DNA from: a virus
Lineage: Duplodnaviria; Heunggongvirae; Uroviricota; Caudoviricetes
Strand: one strand, 5' to 3'
Length of the DNA stretch: 26,713 nucleotides
Virus record (IMG/VR): IMGVR_UViG_3300043411_002784
Position numbers and translations under genes: made by a program. Shown here one piece after another: positions 1,708 through 23,263 of the stretch; the stretch's first letter is position 1; each line of letters starts with the position of its first letter. Below the pieces are notes generated by a model, which had not been told where the DNA came from, ran no database searches, and worked only from the letters and a program-made list of their open reading frames with translations.

Positions 1708-1735
1708 CCCTGTCTGCGGGGTTCGATCGCAGGCC
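1708..1735 (+). repeat. Pseudoknot repeat, single copy (S1 CCC/GGG, S2 GTCTGCG/CGCAGGC)
   Basis: CCC-T-GTCTGCG-GGG-TTCGAT-CGCAGGC-C; both stems pair; 11 nt after a stop codon. Confidence 0.85.
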
Positions 1736-1753
1736 GCCAAACAGCAACTTTTA

Positions 1754-1767
1754 TTATCACGTGATAA
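1754..1767. promoter_or_regulatory. Operator-like perfect 14-bp palindrome TTATCACGTGATAA
   Basis: Perfect palindrome in an AT-rich intergenic region; near-identical copy at 7071. Confidence 0.65.
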
Positions 1768-1792
1768 CTTTCTCCCCGTAAGGATACGAATC

Positions 1793-2491
1793 ATGGGAAA
1801 CCCAGCTTATTCCGAGCAGTACATCGCCGCCAACGCCCCCGACGAAGCGGCTCAGGCCACGCTGCCGATCGTGCTCTCGGACGAGTTCGAGATCTACGAG
1901 CATCACGGCGCGCGAGTCGCCGTGCGCAGCGCCCTCAAGGGCACGCATCGCGACCTGTGCCTCTGCTACGACTGCGAGAGCTTCGCCCCTGCGGAGGAAG
2001 GCCAGGCGTCGGGCTGCCCCATCGCCAACGCGGTCTATGAGAACGCGGTGAAGTACGACCTGGTGAGCCCTGTGCTCGAATGCCCTCAGTTCAAAGAGAG
2101 CGTCGTGGCGGGAAGCAAATACCGTCCCGAAGGCAGCGTCGAGAGGACGCCCCTGGGCATCCTGACCCCGGTGACGATCAACCGCGCCATCCAAGGAATG
2201 CTCGGAGCGCTGCTAAACGCCGAGGTCGTAGCGACCAGCGCCGTGCGTTGCGCTGATCCCGACAATTGCTGCGGCAACCCCGAGGCTTGCGTCAGCGACG
2301 TCTCGATCACGAGCGCCGAGGGCTGTTGCGGGGGCGGCTGCTCCGAAGGCCCTCCTGAAGCCACGTGCATGGGCGACCCTGCATTCTGCGAAGTAGGCGT
2401 CGCCTGCCCCAACCAGGGGGCGTGCGATCCTGAGTCGCCCATTGGCGTCGCTTACGACGGCGTCAATTACGAAGACGCGGACGAGGACTAA
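1793..2491 (+). CDS. Cys-rich (16 Cys), acidic putative metal-binding protein (232 aa)
   Basis: AAGGA upstream of ATG; CLCYDC...CP...CP motif and C-terminal CC/C clusters. Confidence 0.8.
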   Translation: MGNPAYSEQYIAANAPDEAAQATLPIVLSDEFEIYEHHGARVAVRSALKGTHRDLCLCYDCESFAPAEEGQASGCPIANAVYENAVKYDLVSPVLECPQFKESVVAGSKYRPEGSVERTPLGILTPVTINRAIQGMLGALLNAEVVATSAVRCADPDNCCGNPEACVSDVSITSAEGCCGGGCSEGPPEATCMGDPAFCEVGVACPNQGACDPESPIGVAYDGVNYEDADED

Positions 2492-2504
2492 GACCAGTCG
2501 CCGA

Positions 2505-2607
2505 GCCTGTCGCCCGGCTTAGTAGGGCGGACGGATAGTCGGCAACGGTTATCCGCCAACGAGGCAATGAGTGAATTAGGCCTGTCGTCCGGCTTGATGC
2601 GGCGACC
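2505..2607 (+). repeat. Pseudoknot repeats, 2 copies (2505, 2580)
   Basis: GCC-T-GTCGCCC-GGC-TTAGTA-GGGCGGA-C and GCC-T-GTCGTCC-GGC-TTGATG-CGGCGAC-C. Confidence 0.85.
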
Positions 2608-2649
2608 CGGCAGCTTATAAGGCAAGAAGCCAACAAGGGAACCAAGAAG

Positions 2650-5600
2650 ATGCCTACGATGCCCAACGGAGCCACGCTGCCTCAGTCGGCGTTGCCCATG
2701 CAGCCTACGCTTCGGCCTCAGGCCCCTAACCCTGCGGCGCAGATCAACACGCAACAGGCGGGCGGACCCGGTCAAGGCGGAGCGGCGACGGCGGCAGGCG
2801 TCCAACAGGTGGCTCAACAGCAGGGCGTGGGCGTCCCCTCGCCCACGCACGGGCAAGCGGCTCCCCCTCCACAGCCTGCCGCGGGGCCTCCCGCCGCGGC
2901 CTCGCCCCCGGTGACTCCGCCCCCAGTTCCCCCAGGCTTCGCTCCCAACAGTCAGGGCCAGGTGGTCTACCCGCCAGGCCAAGGCCCCGTCACGGAAAAG
3001 GCCAAGCAATTGATTCCCCAACCCAACGCTCCCATCGCTGCGGAAGCGCGTGGTCCCCAAGGCATGCCCATGAACGATCCCTCGCTCAACCCGTTCAACG
3101 TGCGGACGGCGGCTGACTGGGATGCCAGGCTCAAGCAGCTCAAGGAGCGTCGCGATCCTCTGGGCCTTGAGGAAGACCCCGACCATGATCCCGAGCGGGA
3201 TTGGGTCGGTAAGCACGCCATGGCTGCCGCTGGCCTTGATACGGCGGCCGAGAAAGCGCTGGACATCGCTAAGCGTGCCGCCTCGCTTCATCAGGGCGGC
3301 GTGGGCCAAGGCCTGCAACCAACGCCTGCCGTCGGGCTTCATAAGACGGCCTGGCACCATTCGCAACCTGTCGCCGGGACTAATGCGGCGACCCCCGTGA
3401 AGAATGCCTCTGAGCGTGCCGTCGCGCTTCGTACGTCCGGCCCTGTGTGTCGGACCGTGCAAGACGGCCATGGCTACGCAGTCGTTAAGCATGCCGCCTT
3501 GCTTCAAGTTGGCGGCCATGTCGTCGGACCTATGGACGACGAGCCTGTCGACGGGCTTCATACGTCTGACCAACTCCAGCAGGACCAAGAGACGGAAGGC
3601 GACGAGCTGATGGCTCGGGCTGCGACTCTGGGTAAGATGGCGGGTCTATTGTTCAAGACGGCTGGCCAGGGGGCGTCCCCATCGATCGCCGTCGCGGGCT
3701 ACACGGCTAACGGCCAAAACGCCCTCGACCAGGTGAACCGGGCCATTGCCCGCCGCCAGCCGCGCCGCCCGTACGTCGAGAACGACAAGCAATCCGCCGC
3801 GCCGGGGCTCGTCCCGCAGCCGGCCATGCCGACGGCTCCCGCGTTGCCGCCGGCGTTCGCCATGCCTGCCGCCGGGCCTAGTACGACGGCCGCCAAAGTG
3901 AACGCAATGCCGTCCGCCGCCTCCGCTCGTCCCACGATCCAGACGGCTCCGGCTGCTGGAGCGATCCGTCCCGCTGTGCCTGCCGCGCGGCCTGGTAGCG
4001 CTGCCCCGATGCAGACTAATGCCAAGCCCAAGCCCCTGGTCCCCGCGGGCACGGGCTCCAGCAAGATGCCCGCCGTCCCAGGCGGGATCAAGAAAGCGTT
4101 CTTCGGTCCGCTCGGCGGGGGCATGGTTGGCGCTGCCGCCGGTCGCGTAGGCACGAAGATACTCGGAGCGATGACTGGGCCGTCGACTCCCGCCGCTGCG
4201 CCCAAGCCGCCAATGCCGCCAACGCCTAAGCCGGCCCCGACGCCGGCTGCGGCCATGAAGCCGCCGGCCCCTGCGCCGGCGAAGCCGCCGATGCACGTCG
4301 TGCAGGATCCCAAGCTCATGCGCCAGGGCGTGACGCCGACGCCGCCTCCTACGCCTGCCGCACGGCCTAGCAGCGCCGGCTTCGGCTCACTGACTCCGCC
4401 TGCCGTGCCGCCGATCAGTCGCCCGCCGATCACGCCGCAACCGGGGCTAGGCGTGCCGCCAGTTAAGATGCCGCAGAAAACGCCGCAACAGCCGTCGATG
4501 GACGAGTTCTGGCGGTTCCGGTCGCGGATGCCTCAGAACATGGATCCCGGGTTCACGCCGAACTTCACGCCGCAACAGACGTGGCTGGAACAGGAGCTGG
4601 GCATGCCCGCCGGCTCGTGGAACATGGATCCCGGGTTCACGCCGGACGTCCCGCCGCAGCAGTCGCCGGCCGAGAAGATATTGGGGGTGCCTGCCGGGTC
4701 GCTCAACAAGGACCCTGGCATGACGCCGCCGCAGCCTGCCGGTCCCGCAGCTCCCGACATGCTGCAGCAGCTAAAGGCGAGCGAGTTCAACAAGGAAGCC
4801 TGGCTCGGGGCCTTGGCCCGCGGAGCCGGCAAGATGCTGGGCGGAGCCGGCAAGGCCGTGGGCGGAGCTGCAGCTCGGCTCGAAGGGGCCGCCGTACCCA
4901 AACTGCTGTCCAAGATGGCGCCCGCTGCGCCTGCCGCCGCGGCCAAGCCCGTGGCTCAGGGCCTTGAGTCGCTCGCCATGCGTCCCGCACAGGCCGCTGG
5001 TCAGGCCGCTAGCAAAACTCTACCCATGGCCGCCGACTCGACCATTGCCATGAGCCCCGCCGTCCGCCAGCAAGCGATGGACGCCGCCAAGCGGAACGCC
5101 ATCCAACTGGAAGGCCGTCGCGCGGCGGCCCAGGGACAGCCCTGGAACCTCTCAGGAGCCCCCTCGCCCGCTCAGGCGGCTGCGGCGCGGGCTCGCACGG
5201 GACTTCCGCCTGGCGCCGCTCCTAGCGGCCCTGGGGCGGGCGTACGCCCCGTGCCTGGTCAAACGCCTCCCGTCGGGCCTGGTATGACGGGCACTGTCCC
5301 GAAGCAGCCAGGAGCGATGCCTGCCGCCGGGCCTAGTGCGGCGGCGACGGACCCACTGTCGGCCGGTCTCGGCGGCCGCGCCGCCGCACTCGGTCGTCAA
5401 GCCGGCAAAGCGACGCTCAATACGGCCAAGAGCCTCCCGGGCGCCGTGGCCATGGGTGCTGGCATGACCGCGGGCGTCCAAGGGCTCGATGCGGCGATGA
5501 CGGCGGCCGATCCCCAGGCTCCCGGCAACCAAGGGGGCGGCGGGGGCTTCATGGATTCGATCAAGGGAACGGTCGGCTCGTGGCTGGGGGTCGACCCTGG

Positions 5601-6300
5601 CAGCGTGAAGGCGTTCCAAGGACTCCAGGGCGAGCTCGACGCTGCGGGCATCAAGGTGATGGACGACAACGGGCAGCCCTTGGGGCTCAACGACATCATG
5701 ACCCAGGCGATGCAGAGTCCCCAGGGCCAGAAGATGCTCGTCGAGCGAGCCCCCGAGATCATGGCGCAAGCCTTGGAGGATCCCGAGAAGGCGGGACCGC
5801 TGATGGAAGGCTTCGCCGGCTCGCTGGCCAGCCTCTCGCCTGAAGCGAAGGCCCGGTTGGCGGCTGATCCCAACGCTGCGGGCATCCTGTCGTCCCTCAT
5901 GGGCGGCGGCGAGGGGATGATGGGCGGCCTCGCCGGCGGCGCGCAGCAGCTCTGGACGATGTTCCAGCAGCTCGATCCGACGCTGCAGCTGCTCATCGGG
6001 GGCGGCCTCATCGCCGGGTTGACGGGCCTGCTCAGCGGCAGCGGCATGCTGACCGCCGGCGGACTCGGGGCGCTGGCGGCGGGCGGCCTCGGAGCCTATT
6101 ATGGCGACGAGATCGGCGCGATGTTCGGGGGCGGCGAGCAACAGCAGCCGCAGCAACCTCTGGGCCCGCGATCGATGGCTCCCATGCCGTCGCTCGTGCC
6201 TCAGCAGTTGTTTGGGCAGGGCGGCCCGCGGGGGCTGATCAACCCCGCTTTGAAGATGCAAGGCCTCGACCCCAACACGGGGATGCCTCAAGGATCCTAA
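2650..6300 (+). CDS. Large Pro/Ala/Gly/Gln-rich low-complexity protein (1216 aa) with a C-terminal Gly-rich hydrophobic segment; possibly virion-internal
   Basis: 3.6-kb uninterrupted ORF; internal 28-aa repeats in frame; hydrophobic LLIGGGLIAG...GGLGAYYG near the end. The functional label is inference only. Confidence 0.85.
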   Translation: MPTMPNGATLPQSALPMQPTLRPQAPNPAAQINTQQAGGPGQGGAATAAGVQQVAQQQGVGVPSPTHGQAAPPPQPAAGPPAAASPPVTPPPVPPGFAPNSQGQVVYPPGQGPVTEKAKQLIPQPNAPIAAEARGPQGMPMNDPSLNPFNVRTAADWDARLKQLKERRDPLGLEEDPDHDPERDWVGKHAMAAAGLDTAAEKALDIAKRAASLHQGGVGQGLQPTPAVGLHKTAWHHSQPVAGTNAATPVKNASERAVALRTSGPVCRTVQDGHGYAVVKHAALLQVGGHVVGPMDDEPVDGLHTSDQLQQDQETEGDELMARAATLGKMAGLLFKTAGQGASPSIAVAGYTANGQNALDQVNRAIARRQPRRPYVENDKQSAAPGLVPQPAMPTAPALPPAFAMPAAGPSTTAAKVNAMPSAASARPTIQTAPAAGAIRPAVPAARPGSAAPMQTNAKPKPLVPAGTGSSKMPAVPGGIKKAFFGPLGGGMVGAAAGRVGTKILGAMTGPSTPAAAPKPPMPPTPKPAPTPAAAMKPPAPAPAKPPMHVVQDPKLMRQGVTPTPPPTPAARPSSAGFGSLTPPAVPPISRPPITPQPGLGVPPVKMPQKTPQQPSMDEFWRFRSRMPQNMDPGFTPNFTPQQTWLEQELGMPAGSWNMDPGFTPDVPPQQSPAEKILGVPAGSLNKDPGMTPPQPAGPAAPDMLQQLKASEFNKEAWLGALARGAGKMLGGAGKAVGGAAARLEGAAVPKLLSKMAPAAPAAAAKPVAQGLESLAMRPAQAAGQAASKTLPMAADSTIAMSPAVRQQAMDAAKRNAIQLEGRRAAAQGQPWNLSGAPSPAQAAAARARTGLPPGAAPSGPGAGVRPVPGQTPPVGPGMTGTVPKQPGAMPAAGPSAAATDPLSAGLGGRAAALGRQAGKATLNTAKSLPGAVAMGAGMTAGVQGLDAAMTAADPQAPGNQGGGGGFMDSIKGTVGSWLGVDPGSVKAFQGLQGELDAAGIKVMDDNGQPLGLNDIMTQAMQSPQGQKMLVERAPEIMAQALEDPEKAGPLMEGFAGSLASLSPEAKARLAADPNAAGILSSLMGGGEGMMGGLAGGAQQLWTMFQQLDPTLQLLIGGGLIAGLTGLLSGSGMLTAGGLGALAAGGLGAYYGDEIGAMFGGGEQQQPQQPLGPRSMAPMPSLVPQQLFGQGGPRGLINPALKMQGLDPNTGMPQGS
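2874..2901 (+). repeat. Pseudoknot repeat inside CDS
   Basis: GCC-T-GCCGCGG-GGC-CTCCCG-CCGCGGC-C; both stems perfect. Confidence 0.7.
3222..3571 (+). repeat. Pseudoknot repeat cluster inside CDS, 7 copies (3222, 3273, 3324, 3366, 3414, 3489, 3543)
   Basis: S1 variants GGC/GCC, GCG/CGC, GCC/GGC, GCA/TGC; start-to-start distances 51, 51, 42, 48, 75, 54 nt are all multiples of 3. Confidence 0.85.
3864..4381 (+). repeat. Pseudoknot repeats inside CDS, 3 dispersed copies (3864, 3978, 4353)
   Basis: e.g. GCC-T-GCCGCGC-GGC-CTGGTA-GCGCTGC-C at 3978. Confidence 0.65.
4537..4728 (+). repeat. 84-nt (28-aa) tandem repeat, about 2.3 copies, NMDPGFTP...LG(M/V)PAGS
   Basis: AACATGGATCCCGGGTTCACGCCG identical at 4537 and 4621; degenerate third copy at 4705. 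Confidence 0.9.
5265..5346 (+). repeat. Pseudoknot repeats inside CDS, 2 copies (5265, 5319)
   Basis: GCC-T-CCCGTCG-GGC-CTGGTA-TGACGGG-C and GCC-T-GCCGCCG-GGC-CTAGTG-CGGCGGC-G. Confidence 0.7.
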
Positions 6301-6805
6301 GCCTGTCGTCTGGCTTCGTAGGGCGACCAATCGGTCCAGCGTGCAGACGCCAGGACTCGATCGTCGTCGGACTTGGAGACGGCCGTGTGAGTGTGCGCCT
6401 AAGCCTGTCGTCTGGCTTCGTAGGGCGACGGCTAGCCGGTAGCCTGGCCGGCGGCAAAGACGACCAAGATGCTGTGCCTGCCGTCTGGCGTTGTAAGACG
6501 GACGTCGGTCGTTGTCTAGCCGGCCGTTGGTCTGCTCGTGCCTGCCGTCCGGCTTGATAGGACGAGCCAAAATCCGCATCCGAGTGCTCGTGCCTGCCGT
6601 CTGGCTTGTAAGACGGCCAATAGGGGGAAGGATTGAGCTTGCCGCCGAGCTTCGTACGTCGGCCCGACTTCAAGTGTCACTGAGCCTGCCGCCTGGCTTC
6701 GTAAGGCAGCCTCGATGCCGCAACCGGTCGTGCCTGCCGTCTGGCTTCGTAGGACGGCCGAACGCGTCTTGGACCTGAGCTTGCCGTCGAGCTTTGTAGG
6801 CGGCC
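6301..6805 (+). repeat. Pseudoknot repeat array, first part, 9 copies (6301, 6403, 6476, 6540, 6592, 6637, 6684, 6732, 6779) with unique spacers
   Basis: Typical unit GCC-T-GCCGTCT-GGC-TTCGTA-GGACGGC-C; starts immediately after TAA of the large ORF. Confidence 0.95.
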
Positions 6806-6840
6806 TCCGTGCCGCAAATTGACGGACAAGAAAGAAGAAA

Positions 6841-6941
6841 GCCGGAGTAGCTCAAATGGTAGAGCGGCGGGAGTGACCGCGGCGAAACCCTATTACTGCT
6901 GCAGCAGATGGGTAGTGCGGGTTCGAGTCCCGTCTCCGGCG
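6841..6941 (+). tRNA. tRNA-like RNA with intact acceptor, D and T arms but a non-canonical anticodon arm and oversized variable region (possibly degenerate tRNA-Ser(TGA))
   Basis: GCCGGAG/CTCCGGC acceptor stem; TA-GCTC-AAATGGTA-GAGC D arm; GCGGG-TTCGAGT-CCCGT T arm; discriminator G; no encoded CCA. Confidence 0.75.
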
Positions 6942-6945
6942 TTGA

Positions 6946-7752
6946 GCCTGCCGCCCGGCGTCGTTGGGCGGCCGGGGGTGATCTCGATTTCGCAATCTGA
7001 TCGCGCCTGCCGCCTGGCGTCGGGCCTCGTACGACGGCCGATGGGGTCGGGGCAGCCCATAGCTAAAAAATTATCACATGATAAGTTTGTCGCAGGACTT
7101 TGTTCCGCGACCTTGTGGCCACTGAGTTCGAGCCTGCCTGCGGGCTTCGTACGCCGGGCGCACCTGGAGACGCCGTCTTCGCCTATGTCTGCCGCAAGAC
7201 TTTGACCTGCGGCCCACGAGACCGTGCGGGTTGCGGCCTCAGCCATGAACGCTCGCGCCTGTCGACGGGCTTCGTACGCCGGCCTGACTGGGACGACGCC
7301 GACCGCCGGATCTGGTAAGCTGATTCGCTACTACGCTCTGCCGTCGAGCTTCGTCCCACGGCCTTGCGATCAGGGGCAACGACGGCCTACCATCGCGATT
7401 CCGCAATCAGACGGCCTTCGCAGGAAAGACATTACGCTTGCCGTCGAGCTTTGTTCGCCGGCCTGCTCGCAGCTCCTCGCTGCGCCAGAACGTGCCGCGT
7501 CGTTTGCTCACGCGGCCCATCGTATCGCACCGGTTTGCGCCTGCCGTCGGGCCTCGTGCGTCGGCTTGAGCTTGCCAGAGGTCCTGGTATGCTCGCAGCC
7601 ATGCTTGCCGTCGAGCTTCGCATCGCGGCCAAACGGACCCGCTGCCGACGGACCCGATGTCGACGGACTGAATGCAGCTACTCGCTGCGTGCGGCGTCGC
7701 CTCGTAACGCCGCCATCGTCTCGTGCTTGTCGCCTGGCCTCGCAGGGCGGCC
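6946..7752 (+). repeat. Pseudoknot repeat array, second part, 12 copies (6946, 7005, 7132, 7187, 7257, 7335, 7436, 7490, 7539, 7603, 7687, 7725)
   Basis: Includes S1 variants GTC/GAC (7187), ACG/CGT (7490), GCG/CGC (7687), GCT/AGC (7436, 7603). Confidence 0.92.
7071..7084. promoter_or_regulatory. Operator-like near-palindrome TTATCACATGATAA
   Basis: One mismatch to the 1754 palindrome; preceded by A6. Confidence 0.6.
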
Positions 7753-7797
7753 ACAATGTAACCGGGATCCTCCCCTCATTTCCTCAGGAGACGTCCG

Positions 7798-8133
7798 ATG
7801 CTGAGCACCGTATTCATCGACGCGATTCACGGCACGCTGTTCCTCAAGGGACTCGCGCTGCTGCAAGGCCTGCTGATCTACATCATGCTGGTTCGCTGCT
7901 CGGGCCTCGGCCCCAGTCATTCGACGGCGACGCTCTACCACAACACGGAGCAGCGGCTGATCTATGCGCTGCTCGCCGTCGGCGCGGTCTACGTCCAGCT
8001 GGGCCTGCTCTGGCACTGGTTCGAGAAGGCGCTGGACAACGGCCCGTTGTCGGGGCTGCTGCAGGACGTCTACAAGCTGCTGTTCGACACCTACACCGTT
8101 TGTTGTGCTACGCCTGCCGGCGGGTTTTGTTAG
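7798..8133 (+). CDS. Small integral membrane protein (111 aa)
   Basis: AGGAG Shine-Dalgarno; 2-3 hydrophobic stretches; the stop lies inside the 8112 repeat copy. Confidence 0.8.
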   Translation: MLSTVFIDAIHGTLFLKGLALLQGLLIYIMLVRCSGLGPSHSTATLYHNTEQRLIYALLAVGAVYVQLGLLWHWFEKALDNGPLSGLLQDVYKLLFDTYTVCCATPAGGFC

Positions 8134-8366
8134 CCGGCCCCAAATGTGCGGCGACGAGCGCAAGCGCACTCGTTGCGCACTCGTCAGGCCTGCCAGCGGG
8201 CCTTGTTCGCTGGCCCGAAAGATGATGGCAAATATGCCTGCCGCGCGGCTTTATTGCGCGGCCCGGCACTCGTTTGTCTGCGTGAACTGCGCCTGGCATC
8301 AGGCCTTGTTTGATGTCCCCCGCTCTTTTTTTGCGCTACGCCTGCCGACGGGCTTCGTCGTCGGCC
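8112..8366 (+). repeat. Pseudoknot repeats, 5 copies (8112, 8188, 8236, 8291, 8340)
   Basis: S2 stems differ in sequence yet pair: GCCAGCG/CGCTGGC, GCCGCGC/GCGCGGC, GGCATCA/TGATGTC, GCCGACG/CGTCGGC. Confidence 0.95.
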
Positions 8367-8396
8367 ATTGATCTTAAGGGCAACAAAGGACCGCCT

Positions 8397-8819
8397 ATGA
8401 CATTTAGTGAACTTGACGCCGCCGATCAGCAGCGTCGCCAGCGGGACGAGGACCGCGAAGCCAAAAGCCTGGCCGCCCGGCAGGCGTTCATCGAGCTGCT
8501 GGCCGACCCCGAGGTCCGCAACGGCGTCGACACGGTCGCAAAGGCCCAGGAGCTGATCGATCAGATGGAAGAACAGATCCCTGGCGAGTCGCTGCCGCCT
8601 TGCTACGACTGGGCGGTGGCGAAGCGCAACCACCTGGAGAAGTCCTTGACGCTAGACGATCTCGCCAACGCAAGGCATGAAGCGATGCAGGCCAACGTCG
8701 ACGAGCAGCTGGGCTTCTCGCCCACGCCCGAGGCCCAGACCCGCATGATCCGCCGGCTGATCGAGCTGCTGGCTCGCGCCGAGGTCACCATTGAAATGCT
8801 GCAGAAGTCATGCCGCTGA
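8397..8819 (+). CDS. Hypothetical helical protein (140 aa)
   Basis: ATG at 8397 after AAGGA, in frame with track ORF 8310..8819. Confidence 0.85.
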   Translation: MTFSELDAADQQRRQRDEDREAKSLAARQAFIELLADPEVRNGVDTVAKAQELIDQMEEQIPGESLPPCYDWAVAKRNHLEKSLTLDDLANARHEAMQANVDEQLGFSPTPEAQTRMIRRLIELLARAEVTIEMLQKSCR

Positions 8820-9091
8820 AACGCTACCTGACCAACTGCACCGTCCAGGGCAACGGCTCGGCGATCACGGCGATGATCGACGTTGCTCGCGAGATCACCC
8901 GGAAGACGTTTCTCAAGCACGTCGACCGCGCGTCGCTCGTCGAACTGGAGCGCTCTCTGGGCTACGCGGCCCATCCTCGCCAGGGGCTCACCCTGGCGGG
9001 AGACTATCACGTTCAGTATGCGAAAAGCACGTTTCGCGGCCGCCCCTGCGTCTACCTGACCTGGAGCTGCATCGAGTACGTGTTCGTCTGA
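8810..9091 (+). CDS. Hypothetical protein (93 aa)
   Basis: Overlaps the upstream stop region; globular-looking sequence; TGA directly abuts a repeat. Confidence 0.85.
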   Translation: MPLKRYLTNCTVQGNGSAITAMIDVAREITRKTFLKHVDRASLVELERSLGYAAHPRQGLTLAGDYHVQYAKSTFRGRPCVYLTWSCIEYVFV

Positions 9092-9119
9092 GCCTGCCGG
9101 CGGGCTTGCTTCGCCGGCC
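9092..9119 (+). repeat. Pseudoknot repeat abutting the stop codon
   Basis: TGA-GCC-T-GCCGGCG-GGC-TTGCTT-CGCCGGC-C. Confidence 0.9.
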
Positions 9120-9187
9120 CGCCGATATTTAGCCGCCTGGCGTGTCGCCGGCGGCGCGTGTCACCCTCTCTTAGAAGGAACGTTGTG

Positions 9188-9691
9188 ATGAGAAATCTAT
9201 TGTTGAGCCTTGTCGCCTTGACGCTTGTTGCGGCCGGGCAGTCCCACGCAGCGACCCTGACGCTGACCAACCAGTCGGCCAATTCGACCTTCTTTGCGGT
9301 GGCCCCCGAGCAAGACTACTTTGATTACGACCACCGCTACGCCTCGCTGAACCAGACCGGCGCACCCGCGGTCGACGTGCAGACGAGCACCTTCTGGACC
9401 GACGCCAATCAGTTCTGGCTCTTCGGGGCCGACAACAAGGGCGTCTTGCACACGATCGACCTGAACCCGATGCCGACGCTGGTCAACGTGACGCTGCACC
9501 AGATCGTCAACGGTCAGCAGCGCAGCACCTACCAGTATTTCTTCGGTCAGACGACCAACGGCGTGATCGCCGAGCAATGGCTCCCCGTGGTGACGCGGAC
9601 GTTGGCGCCCGCCGGGGTGCCGGAACCGTCGACGCTGGCCTTGGCCGCTTTGGGCCTCGTGGGCGCAGCGTTCCGTCGTCTGCAGCAGTAA
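9188..9691 (+). CDS. PEP-CTERM sorting domain-containing secreted protein
   Basis: N-terminal signal peptide (MRNLLLSLVALTLVAAGQSHA) and C-terminal VPEPSTLALAALGLVGAAFRR (PEP, transmembrane helix, basic tail). Confidence 0.9.
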   Translation: MRNLLLSLVALTLVAAGQSHAATLTLTNQSANSTFFAVAPEQDYFDYDHRYASLNQTGAPAVDVQTSTFWTDANQFWLFGADNKGVLHTIDLNPMPTLVNVTLHQIVNGQQRSTYQYFFGQTTNGVIAEQWLPVVTRTLAPAGVPEPSTLALAALGLVGAAFRRLQQ

Positions 9692-9706
9692 ACTGAGCGA
9701 GCCCGC

Positions 9707-9736
9707 GCCCGTCGCCGTGATCGCACGGCGGCGGGC
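9707..9736 (+). terminator. 13-bp GC hairpin after the PEP-CTERM gene (no T-tract)
   Basis: GCCCGTCGCCGTG-ATCG-CACGGCGGCGGGC. Confidence 0.5.
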
Positions 9737-9749
9737 AGGTTCGAGCTAA

Positions 9750-10068
9750 GCCTGGCGTTCGGCTTCGTCAGGACGCCCCGGTATCACGGCGCCCAGGCGT
9801 CGCGGTGCGTCGGAACGCCCGTAGCGGTGGAGATTAGACCAAGCCTGTCGTCTGGCTTCGTAGGGTGACTGCGAATGTCACCCGTGAAGGCGACCCGGCG
9901 GATGCGATGAACCTGTTGACGAATTAAGCCTGTCGTCTGGCTTCATAGGCCGACCAACCGGGTCGCCAGTGGAAGACGACCCCAAACATTGCCTGTTCGC
10001 GTCTGTCGACGGACTTCATGCGTCGGCCCTACCCCCATATCTGTGTCCGGCCAGTTCATAGCCGGGCC
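9750..10068 (+). repeat. Pseudoknot repeats, 5 copies (9750, 9843, 9928, 10001, 10041)
   Basis: Includes GTC/GAC (10001) and CTG/CAG (10041) S1 variants. Confidence 0.92.
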
Positions 10069-10103
10069 GTCCGCTTGCTGATGTCAAACCTAAGGACAAA
10101 CTC

Positions 10104-10301
10104 ATGTCATTAGCCCCAGCCAAAATCAAGAAACGACTAGAGTATCTCCGCGGCGAGCTGCGGGCTGAGTGCATCAGCCTGGAGGAGCTCGCGGAGCTGC
10201 AAGATCTCGCTCCGCACATTGACCCAGGCGACGTCGAGCTGCTGGAAGCGGCGGGCGTCCCTGAGTTCCCTGAAGACGATGCGGGCCAGGACGCTTCGTA
10301 G
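10104..10301 (+). CDS. Small hypothetical protein (65 aa)
   Basis: AAGGA Shine-Dalgarno; amphipathic RLEYLRGELRAECIS...LLEAAGVPE. Confidence 0.8.
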   Translation: MSLAPAKIKKRLEYLRGELRAECISLEELAELQDLAPHIDPGDVELLEAAGVPEFPEDDAGQDAS

Positions 10302-10327
10302 CCTGGACCATCTCCGAATGAACCTGT

Positions 10328-10448
10328 GCGTGTCGGGCCGCCTGATAGCCCGGACGAACTGTGCCTCTGTTTCCGCGTGCCAGGCCGCCTCGTCGTCTGG
10401 ACCATCTCGGCACGACTCGAAGCGTGCCCCGTCGCTTCGTGCGGGGCC
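10328..10448 (+). repeat. Pseudoknot repeats, 3 copies (10328, 10375, 10422), all with S1 GCG/CGC
   Basis: e.g. GCG-T-GCCCCGT-CGC-TTCGT-GCGGGGC-C; 47-nt period. Confidence 0.9.
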
Positions 10449-10502
10449 ATCCCAGCCGCCGTTGTTTCCCTTTCACCTCTTTTCACCCTTGGAGAATCTT
10501 GC

Positions 10503-10892
10503 ATGAATCTCAGTCGCGCCGCTCAGTACGCCATCGTGTCGATGGCTCAGCTACGCACGACCGGCGACCCCGTCCCCTGCTCCCATCTGGCCAAGCGGGG
10601 CGACATGCCCGAACGGTTCCTGCTGCAGGTGCTGCGCAGCCTGGTGACCGCCGGCCTCGTGAAATCCCGTCGCGGCGTCGACGGGGGCTACAACCTGGCC
10701 AAACGGCCGAACGAGATCACCCTGGCGATGATCATCGAAGCGATCGACGGTCCGGTCGCCGTCGGATCCTTCGAGGTGCTGCAAGCGTTGCCCTCGGACG
10801 CTCTGTCGCACGTCGCCCGGGCGCTGAAGCACGCCAACAGCGAGTCGCTGCGCCAGCTGTCGCGAGTCACGCTTTCCCAGCTCGCCTGTTAA
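10503..10892 (+). CDS. Rrf2-family winged-helix transcriptional regulator, lacking the Fe-S Cys triad
   Basis: YA...LA...MPERFLLQVLRSLVTAGLVKSRRGVDGGYNLAKRPNEITLAMIIEAIDG matches the Rrf2 signature; GGAGA Shine-Dalgarno. Confidence 0.92.
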   Translation: MNLSRAAQYAIVSMAQLRTTGDPVPCSHLAKRGDMPERFLLQVLRSLVTAGLVKSRRGVDGGYNLAKRPNEITLAMIIEAIDGPVAVGSFEVLQALPSDALSHVARALKHANSESLRQLSRVTLSQLAC

Positions 10893-10902
10893 GCGTTATC
10901 AT

Positions 10903-11071
10903 GCCTGCCGTCGGGCTTCGTGCGACGGCCGTTGGCCGCAGTCGTCTTAAGCCTGCCGAGCGGCTTCGTAGTTCGACCGATAGGTCTAAGCGACCTGTCG
11001 CCCTTCGCAAAAGTCGCGCTCGGACGTGGCTGGATCTGATTACGCCTGCCGTCAGGCTTTGTAGAACGGCC
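10903..11071 (+). repeat. Pseudoknot repeats, 3 copies (10903, 10951, 11044)
   Basis: e.g. GCC-T-GCCGTCG-GGC-TTCGTG-CGACGGC-C. Confidence 0.92.
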
Positions 11072-11100
11072 TTAGCCCCCTCTGGCTGCGGAACTGAACT

Positions 11101-11418
11101 ATGTCACAACCTCTCTGCGATCTCTTCAACGAGACGATGGACAAGCTCCGCGACCTCCAGCGGCAGCACGGACTGCTGAAGCTGGCGTTCGGGCTCGATC
11201 CCGAAGACCGGATCGTGGACATTGGCGAGGACAAACGGAGTCTGCTCGTCGATAATCGAGCAGGCTGGCGTCGCCGCGTGTGGAGCGCGGGCGAGACGGC
11301 CCTGGAGCGCGAGCACGCCTCGTCCCTGTCCGGGGACTTGGTCGCGTCACTGGCGAGTTGCGGCGGGTTGCGCATTACGACGGACAACGTCGCAGCGGAG
11401 GTTGCGACCCAAGATTAG
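11101..11418 (+). CDS. Hypothetical protein (105 aa)
   Basis: ORF fits the + strand tiling between repeat clusters. Confidence 0.75.
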   Translation: MSQPLCDLFNETMDKLRDLQRQHGLLKLAFGLDPEDRIVDIGEDKRSLLVDNRAGWRRRVWSAGETALEREHASSLSGDLVASLASCGGLRITTDNVAAEVATQD

Positions 11419-11429
11419 GAGCGTCGGTC

Positions 11430-11705
11430 ATGGAAGGCCTCGATCCCGTACTGATTGGATTTCTGCTGGGGGCCGTCGTCGGCGGCCTGCTGGGCTGCCT
11501 CGGGGGTTATTGTCTGGGGCTGGGTCGCGTGCGTCGCGAGGCGGTCGAGCGCGGCTTCGGCCGCTTCCAGCTCTACTACGTCGAGGCGGCGTTCGATCAG
11601 CCGGGGACGACCATCGGCCGCTTCGTGTGGCGGGGCGACCCGGAGTGGGGAGACGCCTGCGACTATCAGCCGCCGCACTTGGCGACGATTGACGAAGAAA
11701 CCTAA
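11430..11705 (+). CDS. Single-pass membrane protein (91 aa)
   Basis: AGGAG then ATG at 11430; N-terminal hydrophobic Gly-rich helix. Confidence 0.8.
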   Translation: MEGLDPVLIGFLLGAVVGGLLGCLGGYCLGLGRVRREAVERGFGRFQLYYVEAAFDQPGTTIGRFVWRGDPEWGDACDYQPPHLATIDEET

Positions 11706-11733
11706 GCCTGTCGTCGGGCTTCGTACGACTGCC
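11706..11733 (+). repeat. Pseudoknot repeat abutting the stop codon
   Basis: TAA-GCC-T-GTCGTCG-GGC-TTCGTA-CGACTGC-C. Confidence 0.9.
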
Positions 11734-11787
11734 GCAACACAGTGTTAGGCTACGACGACCTGTCACTTGACTTACTTGGAGAACTAT

Positions 11788-12198
11788 ATGGACCGTAGAA
11801 CCGCTTTGCGTTGCCTAGCCGGAGCTGCGGCGATGCCTTTGGTTGCGCCTGCAATCGCTTCTGCCGTCGTCGTTCCGTCTCCCGACGCCATTTGGCGAGG
11901 CCTGGAGGTTTCGAGCGTCGCCGGTAAGCATTGCGTCGCTCGTTACGACGGGCTCGCCGGCACGATCGTGGCCGGGCTGTGGGACGAGCCGTTGTCGGTT
12001 GAAGACGAAAATCGGTGGCTGGACGATCCTCGTTGGTTCTATACGTCGAAGCCTTACAGCGTGTGGGCGATCGACGTGCCGAAAAATCTGACGTCGCAGG
12101 AGCTGACCGGCTACTACCAGCAGGCGCGGGACGGGTTTCAAGCGTTCCCGAGTCTGCCGTCGAGCTTGCCGCGACGGACCCTTGCGCACGTCCTTTAA
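11788..12198 (+). CDS. Protein with a twin-arginine (Tat)-type signal peptide
   Basis: GGAGA Shine-Dalgarno; MDRRTALRCLAGAAAMPLVAPAIASA. Confidence 0.75.
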   Translation: MDRRTALRCLAGAAAMPLVAPAIASAVVVPSPDAIWRGLEVSSVAGKHCVARYDGLAGTIVAGLWDEPLSVEDENRWLDDPRWFYTSKPYSVWAIDVPKNLTSQELTGYYQQARDGFQAFPSLPSSLPRRTLAHVL

Positions 12199-12326
12199 GC
12201 CTGCCGTCCGGCTTCGTATGACGGCCCATCCGCACAATCTTCTCTACGCCTGCCGTCCGGCTTGATGCGGCGGCCTCGCCAATTTCTGCACGGACCAAAC
12301 CTGCCGTCTGGTTTCCCATGTCGGCC
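12152..12326 (+). repeat. Pseudoknot repeats, 4 copies (12152 degenerate and in-gene, 12199, 12248, 12299)
   Basis: 12199 abuts TAA; 12299 has S1 ACC/GGT. Confidence 0.88.
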
Positions 12327-12370
12327 TGTCGCAAGCATGAGTGCGGCAAAAGATAAGAGGGGAACGCCGG

Positions 12371-12592: not shown

Positions 12593-12619
12593 CCTGCCGC
12601 CTGGTTTCGTCGGGCGGCC
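12592..12619 (+). repeat. Pseudoknot repeat overlapping the stop codon (S1 ACC/GGT)
   Basis: ACC-T-GCCGCCT-GGT-TTCGTC-GGGCGGC-C. Confidence 0.9.
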
Positions 12620-12637
12620 AATGTCGTAATTGTCGTC

Positions 12638-13171
12638 ATGAAACACCGCCAACTGCTTGCCACCGTGCTGATCGACGCGCTCGCTCCCGAGGCCGTCGGT
12701 CCCGAGCTGCTCGACGCGACGATCAATCACGCCTGCACGAAGGTGCTCAACGCCCTCTACTCGGAGGAGCTCGATCTCACCGTGAAGATGCCGAAGGGTC
12801 TGACCGTTAAGATCAACGTCGGCTTGGTCACCTTCGGGCGGCCCGTGCTCGTTCACGGCAACGCGACGGGCATGAGCCCCCATCGGCCGATCGTTCACGC
12901 TCACTTCGAGCCTGACGAGTCGACGGATCTGGACATCTACCGCTCGATGCACGAGGCGCTCAGCGCCATGCCCGCGCTCTACCAGGCGAACTGGGAGCGC
13001 GATAACCTGTTGCTGCAAGCCTGCCGCGACGTCGTCGCCGTGCACTCGGGAGACGAGTTCCTGGTGAAGAGCCTCGACCAGCGGCTGCGGCAATCACACC
13101 CGTTCGCCCAGGAGAAGGATCTCGATGAACCGGCTACTAATCTTCCTGCTGTTGGCTGCCCTGACGGCTAG
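12638..13171 (+). CDS. Hypothetical protein (177 aa)
   Basis: ORF track; consistent + strand tiling. Confidence 0.75.
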   Translation: MKHRQLLATVLIDALAPEAVGPELLDATINHACTKVLNALYSEELDLTVKMPKGLTVKINVGLVTFGRPVLVHGNATGMSPHRPIVHAHFEPDESTDLDIYRSMHEALSAMPALYQANWERDNLLLQACRDVVAVHSGDEFLVKSLDQRLRQSHPFAQEKDLDEPATNLPAVGCPDG

Positions 13172-13343
13172 CCTCGTCTGGGCGACGAGCGTCGGCGACG
13201 CCGAGCTGTATTCCCGGACGGCCGCCGTCGTGATCCTGGGTCTGGGCGTCACAGGGGTCACGCTCCTGGTCGCGTCCATTCCCACGTTGTGGCAGCGGGC
13301 CATGCGTCACGACTATCCCGAAGACGAGGAGGCTGATGGCTAA
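13125..13343 (+). CDS. Small two-helix membrane protein (72 aa)
   Basis: GGAGAAGGA Shine-Dalgarno; two hydrophobic helices. Confidence 0.75.
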   Translation: MNRLLIFLLLAALTASLVWATSVGDAELYSRTAAVVILGLGVTGVTLLVASIPTLWQRAMRHDYPEDEEADG

Positions 13344-17341: not shown

Positions 17342-17644
17342 ATGAGTAAGGTGATGCCCAAGGCCTACCGGCCCGAGATCGCCAAAGAGGTCGCCCGCGC
17401 GGATCGCGAGGGCTGGCAGGTGACGGAAGTCGCCCAGATCGATTACTGGGTCGTGGCGGGGACGTCTCGCTGGGGTCGTCTGATCCGTCGCGACGGCAAG
17501 TTCGTCAGCTGCGGTCACAAGCACCGCACCAAAGCGGCGGCTTTGCGCTGCCTGCCCAAGACGACGCGACTGCAGCCCGGCAACTGCGCCCGTTACGAGG
17601 TGCAGCGTCGCGAAGGCTTCGCGATCCGTCGCGTCAAGAAGTAA
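17342..17644 (+). CDS. Basic hypothetical protein (100 aa)
   Basis: AGGAG Shine-Dalgarno; CGHKHRTKAAALRC motif. Confidence 0.85.
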   Translation: MSKVMPKAYRPEIAKEVARADREGWQVTEVAQIDYWVVAGTSRWGRLIRRDGKFVSCGHKHRTKAAALRCLPKTTRLQPGNCARYEVQRREGFAIRRVKK

Positions 17645-17648
17645 TGAA

Positions 17649-17676
17649 GCCTGCCAGACGGCGTTATTGTCTGGTC
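17649..17676 (+). repeat. Pseudoknot repeat, isolated copy just after a stop codon
   Basis: GCC-T-GCCAGAC-GGC-GTTATT-GTCTGGT-C. Confidence 0.85.
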
Positions 17677-19227: not shown

Positions 19228-19229
19228 GC

Positions 19230-19636: not shown

Positions 19637-19643
19637 TCGGACC

Positions 19644-20419: not shown

Positions 20420-20455
20420 ACCTACTTTACTATATACGCCCAGGACGGAGGTCGC

Positions 20456-21017: not shown

Positions 21018-21032
21018 GAAGGAGGTCTCGGC

Positions 21033-21575
21033 TTGTATACGTCCGTACGTCCCTATCGCGTGATCTGGTTCGGCGATCTAGGGACGACTCTGCTTGACAA
21101 AACGCTGCCGGCGGTCTGCAATTTCAGGCAAGCGTTGTCGCTGGCCATGCACTTGCAGGGCGCGGCGACGCACGGCGTCCTGATCGACGCCAACGACTGT
21201 TGGGCGGCGGACCTGCCCGTGAAGGACTGGACGCCGCTCGACCCTGACGAAGAGTGGAGTTCCCCGATGCCAAGACTGGTGACCCGCGACGAGTTCGACC
21301 GGGCGTGCAACGCCGTCTGGTCGGAGATCGAATATCAGAACACGCTCCCGCGTCGCACGGACGACGAGGCGAAGGACGTGCCAGGCTTCCTGACGCTGCT
21401 GCGGCGCTATACGCGGCGGACGGAGGACGCCTGGGCGGATCTGCCCGCGGAGGAGCTCAGCGAGCACGGTCCCCAGGTCCGCGAGGCGCTCGGCGGGATG
21501 CGGAAGCTCGCGGCGATCTGCGTCCGCGCGATGATCTACAACGGGATTCGTTTTCGGCTTGACCCGCCCCGCTAA
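21033..21575 (+). CDS. Hypothetical protein; C-terminal half resembles MazG-like all-alpha NTP pyrophosphohydrolases
   Basis: GGAGG before TTG; EIEYQ...MRKLAAICVRAMIYNG pattern recognised by eye only. Confidence 0.55.
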   Translation: MYTSVRPYRVIWFGDLGTTLLDKTLPAVCNFRQALSLAMHLQGAATHGVLIDANDCWAADLPVKDWTPLDPDEEWSSPMPRLVTRDEFDRACNAVWSEIEYQNTLPRRTDDEAKDVPGFLTLLRRYTRRTEDAWADLPAEELSEHGPQVREALGGMRKLAAICVRAMIYNGIRFRLDPPR

Positions 21576-21585
21576 GGGCGGCCGT

Positions 21586-21616
21586 GCCTGCGGCGAGGCT
21601 TGGACGGATCGCCGCC
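21586..21616 (+). repeat. Pseudoknot repeat with a longer (9-nt) loop
   Basis: GCC-T-GCGGCGA-GGC-TTGGACGGA-TCGCCGC-C, 10 nt after a stop. Confidence 0.8.
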
Positions 21617-21657
21617 ATGACGGTGGTCCGATCGCCGACTTCAAGTCGGTCTGCTTT

Positions 21658-21726
21658 CCAGGCGCTATCACTGTCTGGTATAGCGCCCAGGCGCTATAAC
21701 TGCCCGGTATAGCGCCTGGGCGCTAT
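21658..21726. repeat. Tandem 29-bp palindromic repeats (2 full copies plus 1 partial)
   Basis: CCAGGCGCTATCACTGTCTGGTATAGCGC and CCAGGCGCTATAACTGCCCGGTATAGCGC, then CTGGGCGCTAT. Confidence 0.9.
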
Positions 21727-21729
21727 TGT

Positions 21730-21757
21730 GCCTGGGATCGGGCTTCGCACGATCGCC
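21730..21757 (+). repeat. Pseudoknot repeat
   Basis: GCC-T-GGGATCG-GGC-TTCGCA-CGATCGC-C. Confidence 0.8.
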
Positions 21758-21791
21758 CCACATCGACTAAGTCCTTTTAAGGAGAGAACCG

Positions 21792-22475
21792 TTGCTTACG
21801 CCTGTCGCCGCCGAAGAGTTGCGGCTGAAGTCAGTTCGTCAGTTTCAGGAGCTCGTGGGTCTGCACGGCCTGCACAAGTTCGTCGCCGACTTGATGGAGC
21901 TGCTGCGGATCGCCCAGGGCGACGCAGGACATCGCGGCGAGATCGAGCCCCAGCACTGGGTCGTCGTCGGCCGGCAGCTTAACGAGCTGCTCGCCTTCCA
22001 CGGGACGCTCGCCGCGGAGCACGCCTGCGTCGAGGAGGCCCAGGCCGAACTGGAGAAAGCGGTCAACGAGACGTCGCTCGCCATGACGCGCCTCGAAGCC
22101 GTTCAGATGTCGCTCAGCTCGATGAACGCCTGGCGGGAACGCATCCTCGCTTGGGCGACGGAGCAGCAGGAACAACGTCGTCGCGACGAGTACGACGAGG
22201 ACAGCGAGCAAGACAAGTGGCTCCGGGGGCTGATCGCGCGGTTGGAAGACGTGCCGCTCACGATTCGCTTCGAGCCGCTCGACGCAGATCCCGCGTCGCA
22301 GCTGGCCGGCAAGCCGTACGCGGAAGCGATCGTGAAGCTGACCGCCGACTTTAATCACCTGATCCGCCTCGTCCTGCCGCCCGCCGCCGACGGGACGGAG
22401 CTGGGCGGGTACCAGATCGTCTGGGAAGCCGCCGAGCGGCAGCTGACGATGGACTCGCAGCTGACGCAGTCATGA
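21792..22475 (+). CDS. Coiled-coil hypothetical protein (227 aa)
   Basis: AAGGAG Shine-Dalgarno before TTG. Confidence 0.8.
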   Translation: MLTPVAAEELRLKSVRQFQELVGLHGLHKFVADLMELLRIAQGDAGHRGEIEPQHWVVVGRQLNELLAFHGTLAAEHACVEEAQAELEKAVNETSLAMTRLEAVQMSLSSMNAWRERILAWATEQQEQRRRDEYDEDSEQDKWLRGLIARLEDVPLTIRFEPLDADPASQLAGKPYAEAIVKLTADFNHLIRLVLPPAADGTELGGYQIVWEAAERQLTMDSQLTQS

Positions 22476-22738
22476 GCCGCTTCCGCTTCACCGTTCGCCA
22501 GTTGGCCCTGCTCGCCGTCGCCGTGGCGCTGCCCGCGACGGCGGCGCGGTTGTTCTACGAGGGAACTCGCACGACGAGGTTTCCCGACGACGACTATTGG
22601 CACGGCTTTCCCGAATTCTTCAAGGCGATGATCGCTGCGCTGGCGGTCGAGTGCCTGATAATCGCCTGGCCCTGGCTTTGGCTTTGGGCAGGCCGACCAC
22701 GCCCTACCGAGGAGCCTGACGATGAATCAGTTAGTTGA
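22472..22738 (+). CDS. Two-helix membrane protein (88 aa)
   Basis: ATGA overlap; two hydrophobic segments. Confidence 0.75.
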   Translation: MSRFRFTVRQLALLAVAVALPATAARLFYEGTRTTRFPDDDYWHGFPEFFKAMIAALAVECLIIAWPWLWLWAGRPRPTEEPDDESVS

Positions 22739-23234
22739 ACGCGCCGGCGGCAAGGCCTCGGCGGTGATCCGCGCGATGTGCGACGGCCTCGAAGCCAACG
22801 AGCGACGCGACGACTTCAAAATCCGTATGAGCACGTTCGGCCTTGCGGCGCTGCACAAGTGTTTCGGCTGCGCCGCGACGTGCGCCGTGATGCAAATCAG
22901 CGGGCATCGCTTCACTCCCGCAGTGATCGCCAGTAGTCGCGACCGCGCCAAGGAGCTGGATCTGGACTGGGACGACGTCGAGAAGTTCGAGATGGCCATC
23001 GATCGCCTGCGCGCCTTCAGCCGGCCGCAGAGTCTGATGGACTTGTGCGAGGTGCCCGTCGGCGTCTGGATCGAAGCGCTGAACGACGCTACGGGTCGCG
23101 ATTTCCGCGACGTCATGGCGACGTACGAGCTGCGGCCCGAGTCGCGACCCTGGCTGCTGAACGACCACGACTGGCAAGAGCAGCTGCCGATCGTCCGTCG
23201 CTTCGCCGACGCCCTGGAGGCGGTCGGCTACTAA
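22722..23234 (+). CDS. Hypothetical protein (170 aa)
   Basis: GAGGAG Shine-Dalgarno; CFGCAATC motif. Confidence 0.85.
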   Translation: MNQLVERAGGKASAVIRAMCDGLEANERRDDFKIRMSTFGLAALHKCFGCAATCAVMQISGHRFTPAVIASSRDRAKELDLDWDDVEKFEMAIDRLRAFSRPQSLMDLCEVPVGVWIEALNDATGRDFRDVMATYELRPESRPWLLNDHDWQEQLPIVRRFADALEAVGY

Positions 23235-23235
23235 C

Positions 23236-23263
23236 GCCTGTCCGGCGGCTTCGCGTCCGGACG
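23236..23263 (+). repeat. Pseudoknot repeat 1 nt after a stop codon
   Basis: GCC-T-GTCCGGC-GGC-TTCGCG-TCCGGAC-G. Confidence 0.8.

Follow-up and report, generated by a model that had tools for sequence, protein, structure and literature searches.

Dispersed structured repeats at gene ends are already known in several guises, among them repetitive extragenic palindromic (REP) sequences, the promoter early stem-loops (PeSLs) of T4-type phages, RNase III sites and inter-gene ribozymes. REPs stabilise the messenger RNA upstream of them, and in phage T7 the early genes of a long polycistronic transcript are each followed by an RNase III site, where cutting leaves a 3' hairpin with a protective role. 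The element considered here extends this company. It is a repeat of 27-28 nt that occurs about 64 times in the 27 kb of a viral DNA stretch (26,713 nt of IMG/VR record IMGVR_UViG_3300043411_002784, hereafter the window), or about once per 400 bp, and it is a real, conserved, structured element in the form of an H-type pseudoknot with crossing helices. To our knowledge, no 27-nt pseudoknot family has been reported in which both helices covary, with roughly one copy every 400 bp, arrays of 47-48-nt period and orthologous copies within an open reading frame (ORF). What is new is thus the pseudoknot form, the density, the regularity of the arrays and the orthologous copies inside an ORF.

The unit shares with the T2/T4 gene 32 messenger RNA pseudoknot, whose features are established knowledge, two coaxial stems without a linker, a single nucleotide over a 7-bp stem 2 and a loop of 6-7 nt over stem 1. 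The gene 32 pseudoknot, however, is present in one copy in a 5' leader, where it serves autoregulation by gp32, whereas the phage unit has a stem 1 of only 3 bp and occurs in 64 copies after stop codons, in arrays and within an ORF; the two show no sequence likeness. The T7 RNase III sites are, like the unit, structured RNA elements placed after genes, but they are long, irregular hairpins (about 60 nt) that number ten in a genome and do not occur in arrays or within ORFs; for the unit, cutting is only proposed. REP sequences, bacterial interspersed mosaic elements and Rickettsia palindromic elements are likewise short, structured, high-copy repeats after genes, and the last of these also lie in frame inside ORFs (PMC10969869). 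They differ in being hairpins or longer palindromes of bacterial chromosomes, often in inverted pairs, whereas the unit is a pseudoknot of a phage-like genome in a single orientation. PeSLs are repeated small motifs that mark hyperplastic regions (PMC2839356, PMC4122927) and, like the unit, flank the variable small genes of such an early region. In PeSLs the sequence itself is conserved and a terminator hairpin is joined to an early promoter, whereas the unit has no promoter part and its stems covary; identity with PeSLs was rejected because no conserved promoter-like element was found in the flanks of the unit.

The first-pass annotation of the window, made from its letters alone, had not recognised the repeat as a described family, and searches of Rfam, INPHARED and IMG/VR agree. 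Rfam 15 returned a single match on the window and its relatives, a tRNA at 6841-6941, and nothing for the units even at an expectation value (E) of 10. INPHARED phages gave no DNA or protein match, exact consensus scans of IMG/VR gave 0 matches with three patterns, and a scan of a genome collection produced only single matches per locus with poor full-model scores, which we read as chance. A full-text search of the literature found no report of such a repeat. Mimicry of RNase P, T-arm or anticodon-loop type was rejected: the loop resembles the T-loop UUCG, but its register and closing pairs misfit.

The architecture originally proposed, S1a(3)-T-S2a(7)-S1b(3)-loop(5-7, mostly 6)-S2b(7)-C, where S1 and S2 are stems 1 and 2, was reproduced by a parse of 66 window copies. 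A core 14-mer allowed one mismatch at most matches 25 times, always on the plus strand, against 0.25 expected from shuffles. A descriptor without S1 (the T plus 7/7 pairs of S2) matches 64 times on the plus strand and 30 times on the minus; adding 3/3 Watson-Crick pairs of S1 leaves 26 matches on the plus strand and none on the minus. The copies were then counted with a covariance model built from the 7-bp S2 hairpin only, and so blind to S1, which returned 62 matches at E<=0.01 and 64 at E<=0.04, every one on the plus strand (best minus-strand match E=1.9). The early count of about 64 copies between 1708 and 23236-23263, all on the coding strand, is therefore borne out at 62-66 copies. S1 forms 3/3 Watson-Crick pairs in 59 of the 66 window copies and does so in three more if G.U is allowed. 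It takes at least nine Watson-Crick forms on copies with unrelated S2 and spacers, and copy 7336 retains a GCT/AGC S1 despite a 2-nt linker. Every S1 type listed at the outset is present, the CTG/CAG copy at 10041 being found by the descriptor and by the model only in part, and the S2 variants quoted for 8188, 8291 and 7687 read as described.

Four further loci, which stand for at least three related genomes, carry the unit, together in dozens of copies. A degenerate 28-mer scan of metagenome contigs retrieved L059, with about 27 copies in 2 kb, and L068, with 7 copies; protein searches retrieved L052 and L077 (one other sample), which are syntenic with window 20.6-26.7 kb and 0.8-10.9 kb and hold 3 and 35 copies respectively. 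L059 and L068 have no DNA or protein likeness to the window beyond the unit itself, except for a distant homologue of the window's 1216-aa protein in L068. Across these loci S1 appears as GGC/GCC, GCG/CGC, GTC/GAC and CCC/GGG, and S2 is wholly different, in one case departing from the consensus at most positions with every position paired. The unit was not found in L053 and L055, more distant phage contigs that share a 102-aa protein family with the window, and a protein-guided scan of metagenome contigs with a 592-aa protein gave nothing.

Both helices are maintained by matched mutations, which is why the element can be called real. Mutual information, computed all-against-all over 45 fixed columns (flanks, stems and loop ends) with no structure assumed, places the five variable S2 pairs and all three S1 pairs in the top eight (0.31-0.95 bits), with all other column pairs at 0.30 or below. 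Four loci supplied 95 copies for an alignment with the S1-blind model. Here 99.3% of S1 cells are paired, and each of the three S1 pairs shows changes on both sides (4, 6 and 15 cells); for S2 the paired share is 90.4%, again with two-sided changes in every one of its seven pairs. Neither this degree of pairing nor the covariation score was attained by any of 500 shuffles, and only 27-49% of cells paired when the partners were slid by 1-3 columns. The crossing of two covarying helices that had been read from the sequence is thus substantiated. No covariation backs the rival nested pairings that folding or the terminator scan put forward. Leader against loop, S1b against the loop's 3' half (as a nested extension of S2) and a 5' hairpin G5-C10 were all rejected on this ground. 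The S1 signal also persists once relatedness is considered, because independent loci, compensatory changes between orthologous copies and strain single-nucleotide polymorphisms (SNPs) all keep the pairing.

Which strand folds can be approached through the imperfect pairs. The first-pass annotation had put G.T against A.C in S2 at roughly 30 to under 10; a count over window S2 cells gives 34 against 9, and in 130 pooled copies G.U outnumbers A.C by 62 to 15 (p=6e-8), so that the plus strand is, as had been suspected, the one that folds. In each of the five loci the gene strand carries every copy. The folding molecule is most likely RNA, in transcripts of the plus strand, since the copies are co-oriented with genes, a 1-nt bridge over 7 bp suits A-form geometry and the loop carries a U-N-R signature. 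Under Pleij's rules, and in the gene 32 pseudoknot of T2, one nucleotide can span the narrow deep groove of a 7-bp A-form helix, and U followed by N and R is the signature of a U-turn. The loop lengths, 1 nt over 7 bp and 6 nt over 3 bp, match this classical H-type geometry, as the earlier reading held. In this fold, S2 (7 bp) and S1 (3 bp) would stack into a rod of 10 bp, with the single U crossing the deep groove of S2 and the 6-nt loop crossing S1.

It had also been claimed that structure rather than sequence is under selection, and this holds only in part, several unpaired positions being nearly invariant. The linker is U in 127/130 copies and the trailing base C in 112/130, and within the 6-nt loop, consensus Y-U-N-R-U-N, the second position is U in 118/118, the fourth a purine in 112/118 and the fifth U in 101/118. 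A 4-nt leader, Y-Y-R-H, precedes the fold (Y at -4 in 121/130, R at -2 in 119/130, non-G at -1 in 126/130), and a stop codon occupies its last three positions in 31/130 copies. Most L059 leaders read Y-Y-A-Y and contain no stop, and copies within the long ORF keep an out-of-frame TAA or TGA; the leader is therefore part of the motif, and gene ends make use of it.

The copies in the window are distributed as follows (single positions are starts of copies).

1708-1735, plus strand: a single copy with S1 CCC/GGG, 11 nt past the stop of the ORF 1388-1696 and upstream of a palindrome at 1754-1767.
2505-2607, plus strand: two copies (2505, 2580) between the ORF 1793-2491 and the start of the 1216-aa ORF.
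2874-5346, plus strand: thirteen copies within the ORF 2650-6300 (2874, 3222, 3273, 3324, 3366, 3414, 3489, 3543, 3864, 3978, 4353, 5265, 5319), all in codon phase 2, seven of them column-matched in the L077 homologue.
6301-6806, plus strand: first part of an ORF-free array (6301, 6403, 6476, 6540, 6592, 6637, 6684, 6732, 6779); copy 6301 abuts the TAA of the 1216-aa ORF, and the period is 45-48 nt from 6592.
6946-7752, plus strand: second part of the array (6946, 7012, 7085, 7132, 7187, 7257, 7336 with its 2-nt linker, 7436, 7490, 7539, 7603, 7687, 7725).
8112-8366, plus strand: five copies (8112, 8188, 8236, 8291, 8340) between the ORFs 7798-8133 and 8397-8819; copy 8112 includes the stop codon of 7798-8133.
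9092-9119, plus strand: one copy, abutting the TGA stop at 9089-9091.
9750-10449, plus strand: copies 9750, 9843, 9928, 10001, 10041 (descriptor only), 10281, 10328, 10375 and 10422, upstream of an Rrf2-like ORF ending at 10892.
10903-11071, plus strand: copies 10903, 10951 and 11044.
11706-11733, plus strand: one copy, abutting the TAA stop at 11703-11705.
12152-12326, plus strand: copies 12152 (S1 imperfect), 12199, 12248 and 12299 (S1 ACC/GGT).
12592-12619, plus strand: one copy with S1 ACC/GGT, 18 nt before a start at 12638.
17649-17676, plus strand: an isolated copy, 4 nt past the stop of the ORF 17342-17644.
21586-21757, plus strand: two copies, one weak with a loop of 9 nt (21586) and one good (21730), on either side of palindromic 29-nt repeats, with copies in the orthologous gap of L052.
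23236-23263, plus strand: the last copy, 1 nt past the stop of the ORF 22722-23234.

At real gene ends in four loci the unit mostly begins 0-1 or 10-13 nt past the stop codon, and its distance to the next gene start varies from 11 to 57 nt. Copies are dense at 1.7-12.6 kb, among small ORFan genes and long gaps, and rare in the tightly packed 13-26 kb. No U-tract follows the unit, the positions past the trailing C are unconserved, and the window holds 9 terminator-like sites against 8.7 in shuffles. An intrinsic terminator was accordingly rejected, there being no U-tract directly after the hairpin and no excess of sites.

Between neighbouring copies, spacers range from 10 nt to whole genes, most commonly 19-20 nt, and short gaps have a sharp mode at a period of 47-48 nt (21/52 short gaps, three genomes), the spacers themselves being unique. 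Copies 10281, 10328, 10375 and 10422, for instance, keep a 47-nt period and share S1 GCG/CGC. The simplest reading of the sequences is an old tandem duplication of a unit of about 48 nt of which only the fold would have been retained, in agreement with the indels of whole units of about 48 nt that separate the two homologous big-protein genes of the window and L077.

The L077 homologue of the 1216-aa ORF (1190 aa, 57% identical over aligned columns) contains 13 copies, as does the window ORF, all in codon phase 2 and seven at identical alignment columns. Across the seven orthologous pairs, 8 base pairs show a two-sided change and remain paired, 2 change on one side via G.U, and there are 7 gains or losses of mismatches. 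Copy 5319, its L077 counterpart and a probable counterpart in L068 encode the same peptide through three mutually compensated versions of S2, drawn from synonymous Ala codons. No slippery heptamers were seen by eye before the copies in the ORF. Strains were compared through contigs of four DNA runs set against window 5800-13200: in near-identical strains from other metagenomes both stem SNPs (7750 and 10384) turn G.T into A-T. A 76-nt deletion between two short direct repeats (7383-7458) removes copy 7436 in contigs of two other metagenomes, and the array therefore differs among strains. Joints and loose ends at copies in these contigs, which connect unrelated copies (e.g. 7278 to the sequence after 3543), were rejected as rearrangements and read as k-mer assembly artefacts. 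The window also has two genes that L077 lacks, 8397-8819 and 9158-9691, both bordered by copies.

The window has a G+C content of about 64%, and by third-position G+C every convincing gene lies on the plus strand. Almost none of its ORFs has a Pfam or PHROG family, the exceptions being a PEP-CTERM tail, a weak match to a phage zinc finger and an Rrf2-like regulator. Members of the 102-aa protein family (21267-21575) sit on metagenomic contigs with terminase, DNA polymerase A, single-stranded DNA-binding protein and helicases, and for this reason the source is taken to be an uncultured phage. Its 73 relatives, with identities of 55-80%, come from phage-like contigs of metagenomes that reach 332 kb in length, and the protein has neither a Pfam family nor an INPHARED match; it is a widespread uncharacterised phage protein family.

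The 1216-aa protein (ORF 2650-6300, P0001) is of low complexity, rich in Pro, Ala, Gly and Gln, with no family match found and a C-terminal domain kept in L077 and L068. The pseudoknot copies within it translate as peptides of the P-A-A-G-P-S-x-A-A or x-A-V-x-L-x-x-x-G type, and the source annotation seems to use a later start (1076 aa). The ORF 7798-8133, after the array, is hydrophobic and by eye resembles a membrane protein. The ORF 9158-9691, with pseudoknot copies on its borders and no counterpart in syntenic L077, codes for a secreted protein of small size that ends in a PEP-CTERM sorting tail (Pfam E=7e-7), which hints that the phage infects a host with an exosortase. At about 10494-10892 lies a protein 53% identical to an Rrf2-family regulator of L077 (the latter against Pfam Rrf2, E=5e-25); the four copies 10281-10422 are upstream of its true start, with none inside.

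Two other repeats keep company with the unit. A 14-bp A+T-rich palindrome, TTATCACRTGATAA, occurs at 1754-1767 and 7071-7084 and in L077 at 1809-1822 and 6280-6293, and is thus kept in both phages; the first precedes the gene at 1793, the second is in the array, immediately next to a pseudoknot copy, and a weaker site is found at 23812-23825. It may be an operator or an extended -10 region. At 21658-21726 a 29-nt tandem repeat (2.4 copies), made of 9-bp inverted repeats, is kept in the syntenic gap of L052 (about 3243-3285), just upstream of a pseudoknot copy and a gene start, and is probably a regulator-binding or promoter region.

Embedded in the ORF-free array is a tRNA-like gene (6841-6941, plus strand) to which the Rfam tRNA model gives 45 bits, although 37 nt take the place of the 17-nt anticodon region; ARAGORN makes no call there, and no tRNA was found in the L077, L059, L068 and L052 contigs scanned. 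The next pseudoknot copy begins 4 nt past its 3' end. A tRNA-like gene in this position suggests that the array is probably transcribed.

What might such an element do? The proposal we favour, at a probability of about 40%, is that the unit marks gene boundaries in cis, at the RNA level, and that a protein reads this mark to cut the RNA or protect its ends, for which we infer transcription, a partner and the cut or protection itself. The pseudoknot would fold in plus-strand transcripts of an uncultured phage lineage and be recognised by a shape- and sequence-specific protein of phage or host, either a nuclease or a protective binder. This protein would cleave the long polycistronic RNAs of the early phase in the single-stranded leader, or else cover the ends so produced, and every transcript segment would thereby be insulated and stabilised, as with T7 RNase III sites and REP hairpins. 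The proposal is favoured by the tie to stop codons, the conserved single-stranded bases, the lack of terminator or promoter features and a tRNA-like gene within the array that would need processing, as well as by analogy with the T7 sites and REP stabilisers. Several observations weigh against it, or against the fold on which it builds. S1 is only 3 bp long and marginal by itself, and nested folding with ViennaRNA, which does not score pseudoknots, shows S2 only; covariation and G.T excess would also allow folding of plus-strand single-stranded DNA. Arrays of 21-27 copies are not obviously needed by a processing or stabilising mark, cutting at the 13 conserved copies within the ORF would destroy the message, and messages cut directly at a stop codon would call for ribosome rescue. 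The roughly 40 ORFs scanned yielded no recognisable candidate for the partner protein. As arrays and in-ORF copies sit poorly with a gene-boundary mark, five other explanations are kept alive.

The arrays may instead act as a sponge or decoy that, with the further copies present in all early messages, soaks up a defence nuclease or an RNA-binding protein of the host in the manner of CsrB-type or phage pseudo-antitoxin RNAs. The very high copy number (64 in 27 kb, about 27 in 2 kb of L059) in ORF-free arrays speaks for it, conserved unpaired bases would suit a binder, and scans of bacterial genomes found the unit only as single chance matches. Titration, however, does not predict a tie to stop codons or conservation inside one ORF; the repeats have stayed diverse instead of being homogenised, there is no known target protein, and the ORFs scanned include no ToxN/AbiQ-type neighbour. 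We regard this explanation as unlikely, though not negligible. The first-pass annotation also suggested a type III antitoxin or mimic. ToxI is, like the unit, a repeated pseudoknot RNA with a single-stranded stretch between units, but its repeats are near-identical and abut one another before a ToxN-type gene, whereas the units are diverse and separated by unique spacers or whole genes. The suggestion was dropped, as the repeats are neither identical nor abutting (gaps of 10 nt to several hundred nt) and Pfam and PHROGs scans of the window ORFs recognised no endoribonuclease gene of ToxN/AbiQ type.

Similarly doubtful is a selfish palindromic repeat of REP or Rickettsia type, spread or kept at the level of single-stranded DNA by an HUH-type or other enzyme and tolerated after genes and in frame in a disordered protein. 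Its distribution would resemble that of REP sequences, miniature inverted-repeat transposable elements as well as Rickettsia palindromic elements, in-frame copies included (PMC10969869), and a single shared orientation is expected of a repeat tied to one replication strand. The whole-unit indels of about 48 nt between homologous ORFs and the 76-nt deletion of one copy in other strains agree with such mobility, and the 4-nt leader resembles the target tetranucleotides of IS200/IS605. Against this, old copies with unique stems stay paired by compensation, also between orthologues, which argues for selection at each site rather than recent copying. No transposase or REP-associated tyrosine transposase (RAYT) family, Y1 transposases included, was found in the window ORFs scanned, the window being part of a 90.7-kb contig; there are no inverted pairs, all copies being on the plus strand, and a 1-nt bridge over 7 bp fits A-form RNA better than B-form DNA.

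A bolder notion is that the pseudoknot is the core of a previously unknown RNA system, either as the handle of 47-48-nt small RNAs or as an RNA that is active without protein, be it by cleaving itself, as the smallest motif to do so, or by blocking nucleases mechanically. We hold this decidedly unlikely.

The unit might also be a recombination module, offering short homologies or structured sites for cassette swaps in the way of T4-type PeSLs or integron attC sites, and this we consider improbable. The copy-rich 1.7-12.6 kb does hold small ORFan genes, the two window genes absent from L077 are bordered by copies, and PeSLs mark hyperplastic regions of just this kind (PMC2839356, PMC4122927). 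Homology-driven exchange, however, selects identity of sequence and not covarying stems, a promoter part was not found, and where contigs of other runs are joined at copies, k-mer assembly artefacts are the likely cause. An attC site itself, a bottom-strand hairpin of 57-141 nt with R and L boxes, was rejected: the unit is far shorter at 27-28 nt, G.T is tolerated on its plus (coding) strand, and the ORFs scanned include no integrase.

Guide-like small RNAs would take the 47-48-nt unit as a pseudoknot handle with a variable tail of 19-20 nt, cut from the array for an effector. The handle of the Cas12a CRISPR RNA is itself a small pseudoknot, and a CRISPR array, like the arrays here, alternates structured repeats of 28 nt with unique spacers. 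The sharp 47-48-nt mode, the unique spacers and the conserved leader just 5' of the handle would fit. CRISPR repeats, however, are identical, with uniform spacers and cas genes, whereas the units are non-identical with spacers of 10 nt to whole genes, most often of only 19-20 nt, and a CRISPR array was rejected on uneven spacers, non-identical repeats and the lack of cas genes in the ORFs scanned. More broadly, the spacers match nothing beyond shuffled controls among the window and related loci, many of them are whole genes, the handles are not uniform and no effector or acquisition genes were seen, all of which makes guides very improbable. Least probable of all is a minimal self-cleaving ribozyme cutting in the Y-Y-R-H leader, which would fit the gene-boundary placement, the invariant unpaired bases and the pyrimidine-purine step just 5' of the fold, but whose 27 nt are far below any known self-cleaving class, which Rfam ribozyme models do not match even at E=10 on a short stretch, and whose thirteen conserved in-ORF copies would cut their own message.

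Whichever function proves correct, RNA biology gains a very small and richly sampled natural pseudoknot in 130 variants. The copies within the ORF are a clean case of nucleic-acid structure constraining synonymous sites. For the phages themselves, the unit points to a layer of transcript organisation, or possibly to a decoy strategy, in an unexplored lineage of fresh water, groundwater and waste water.

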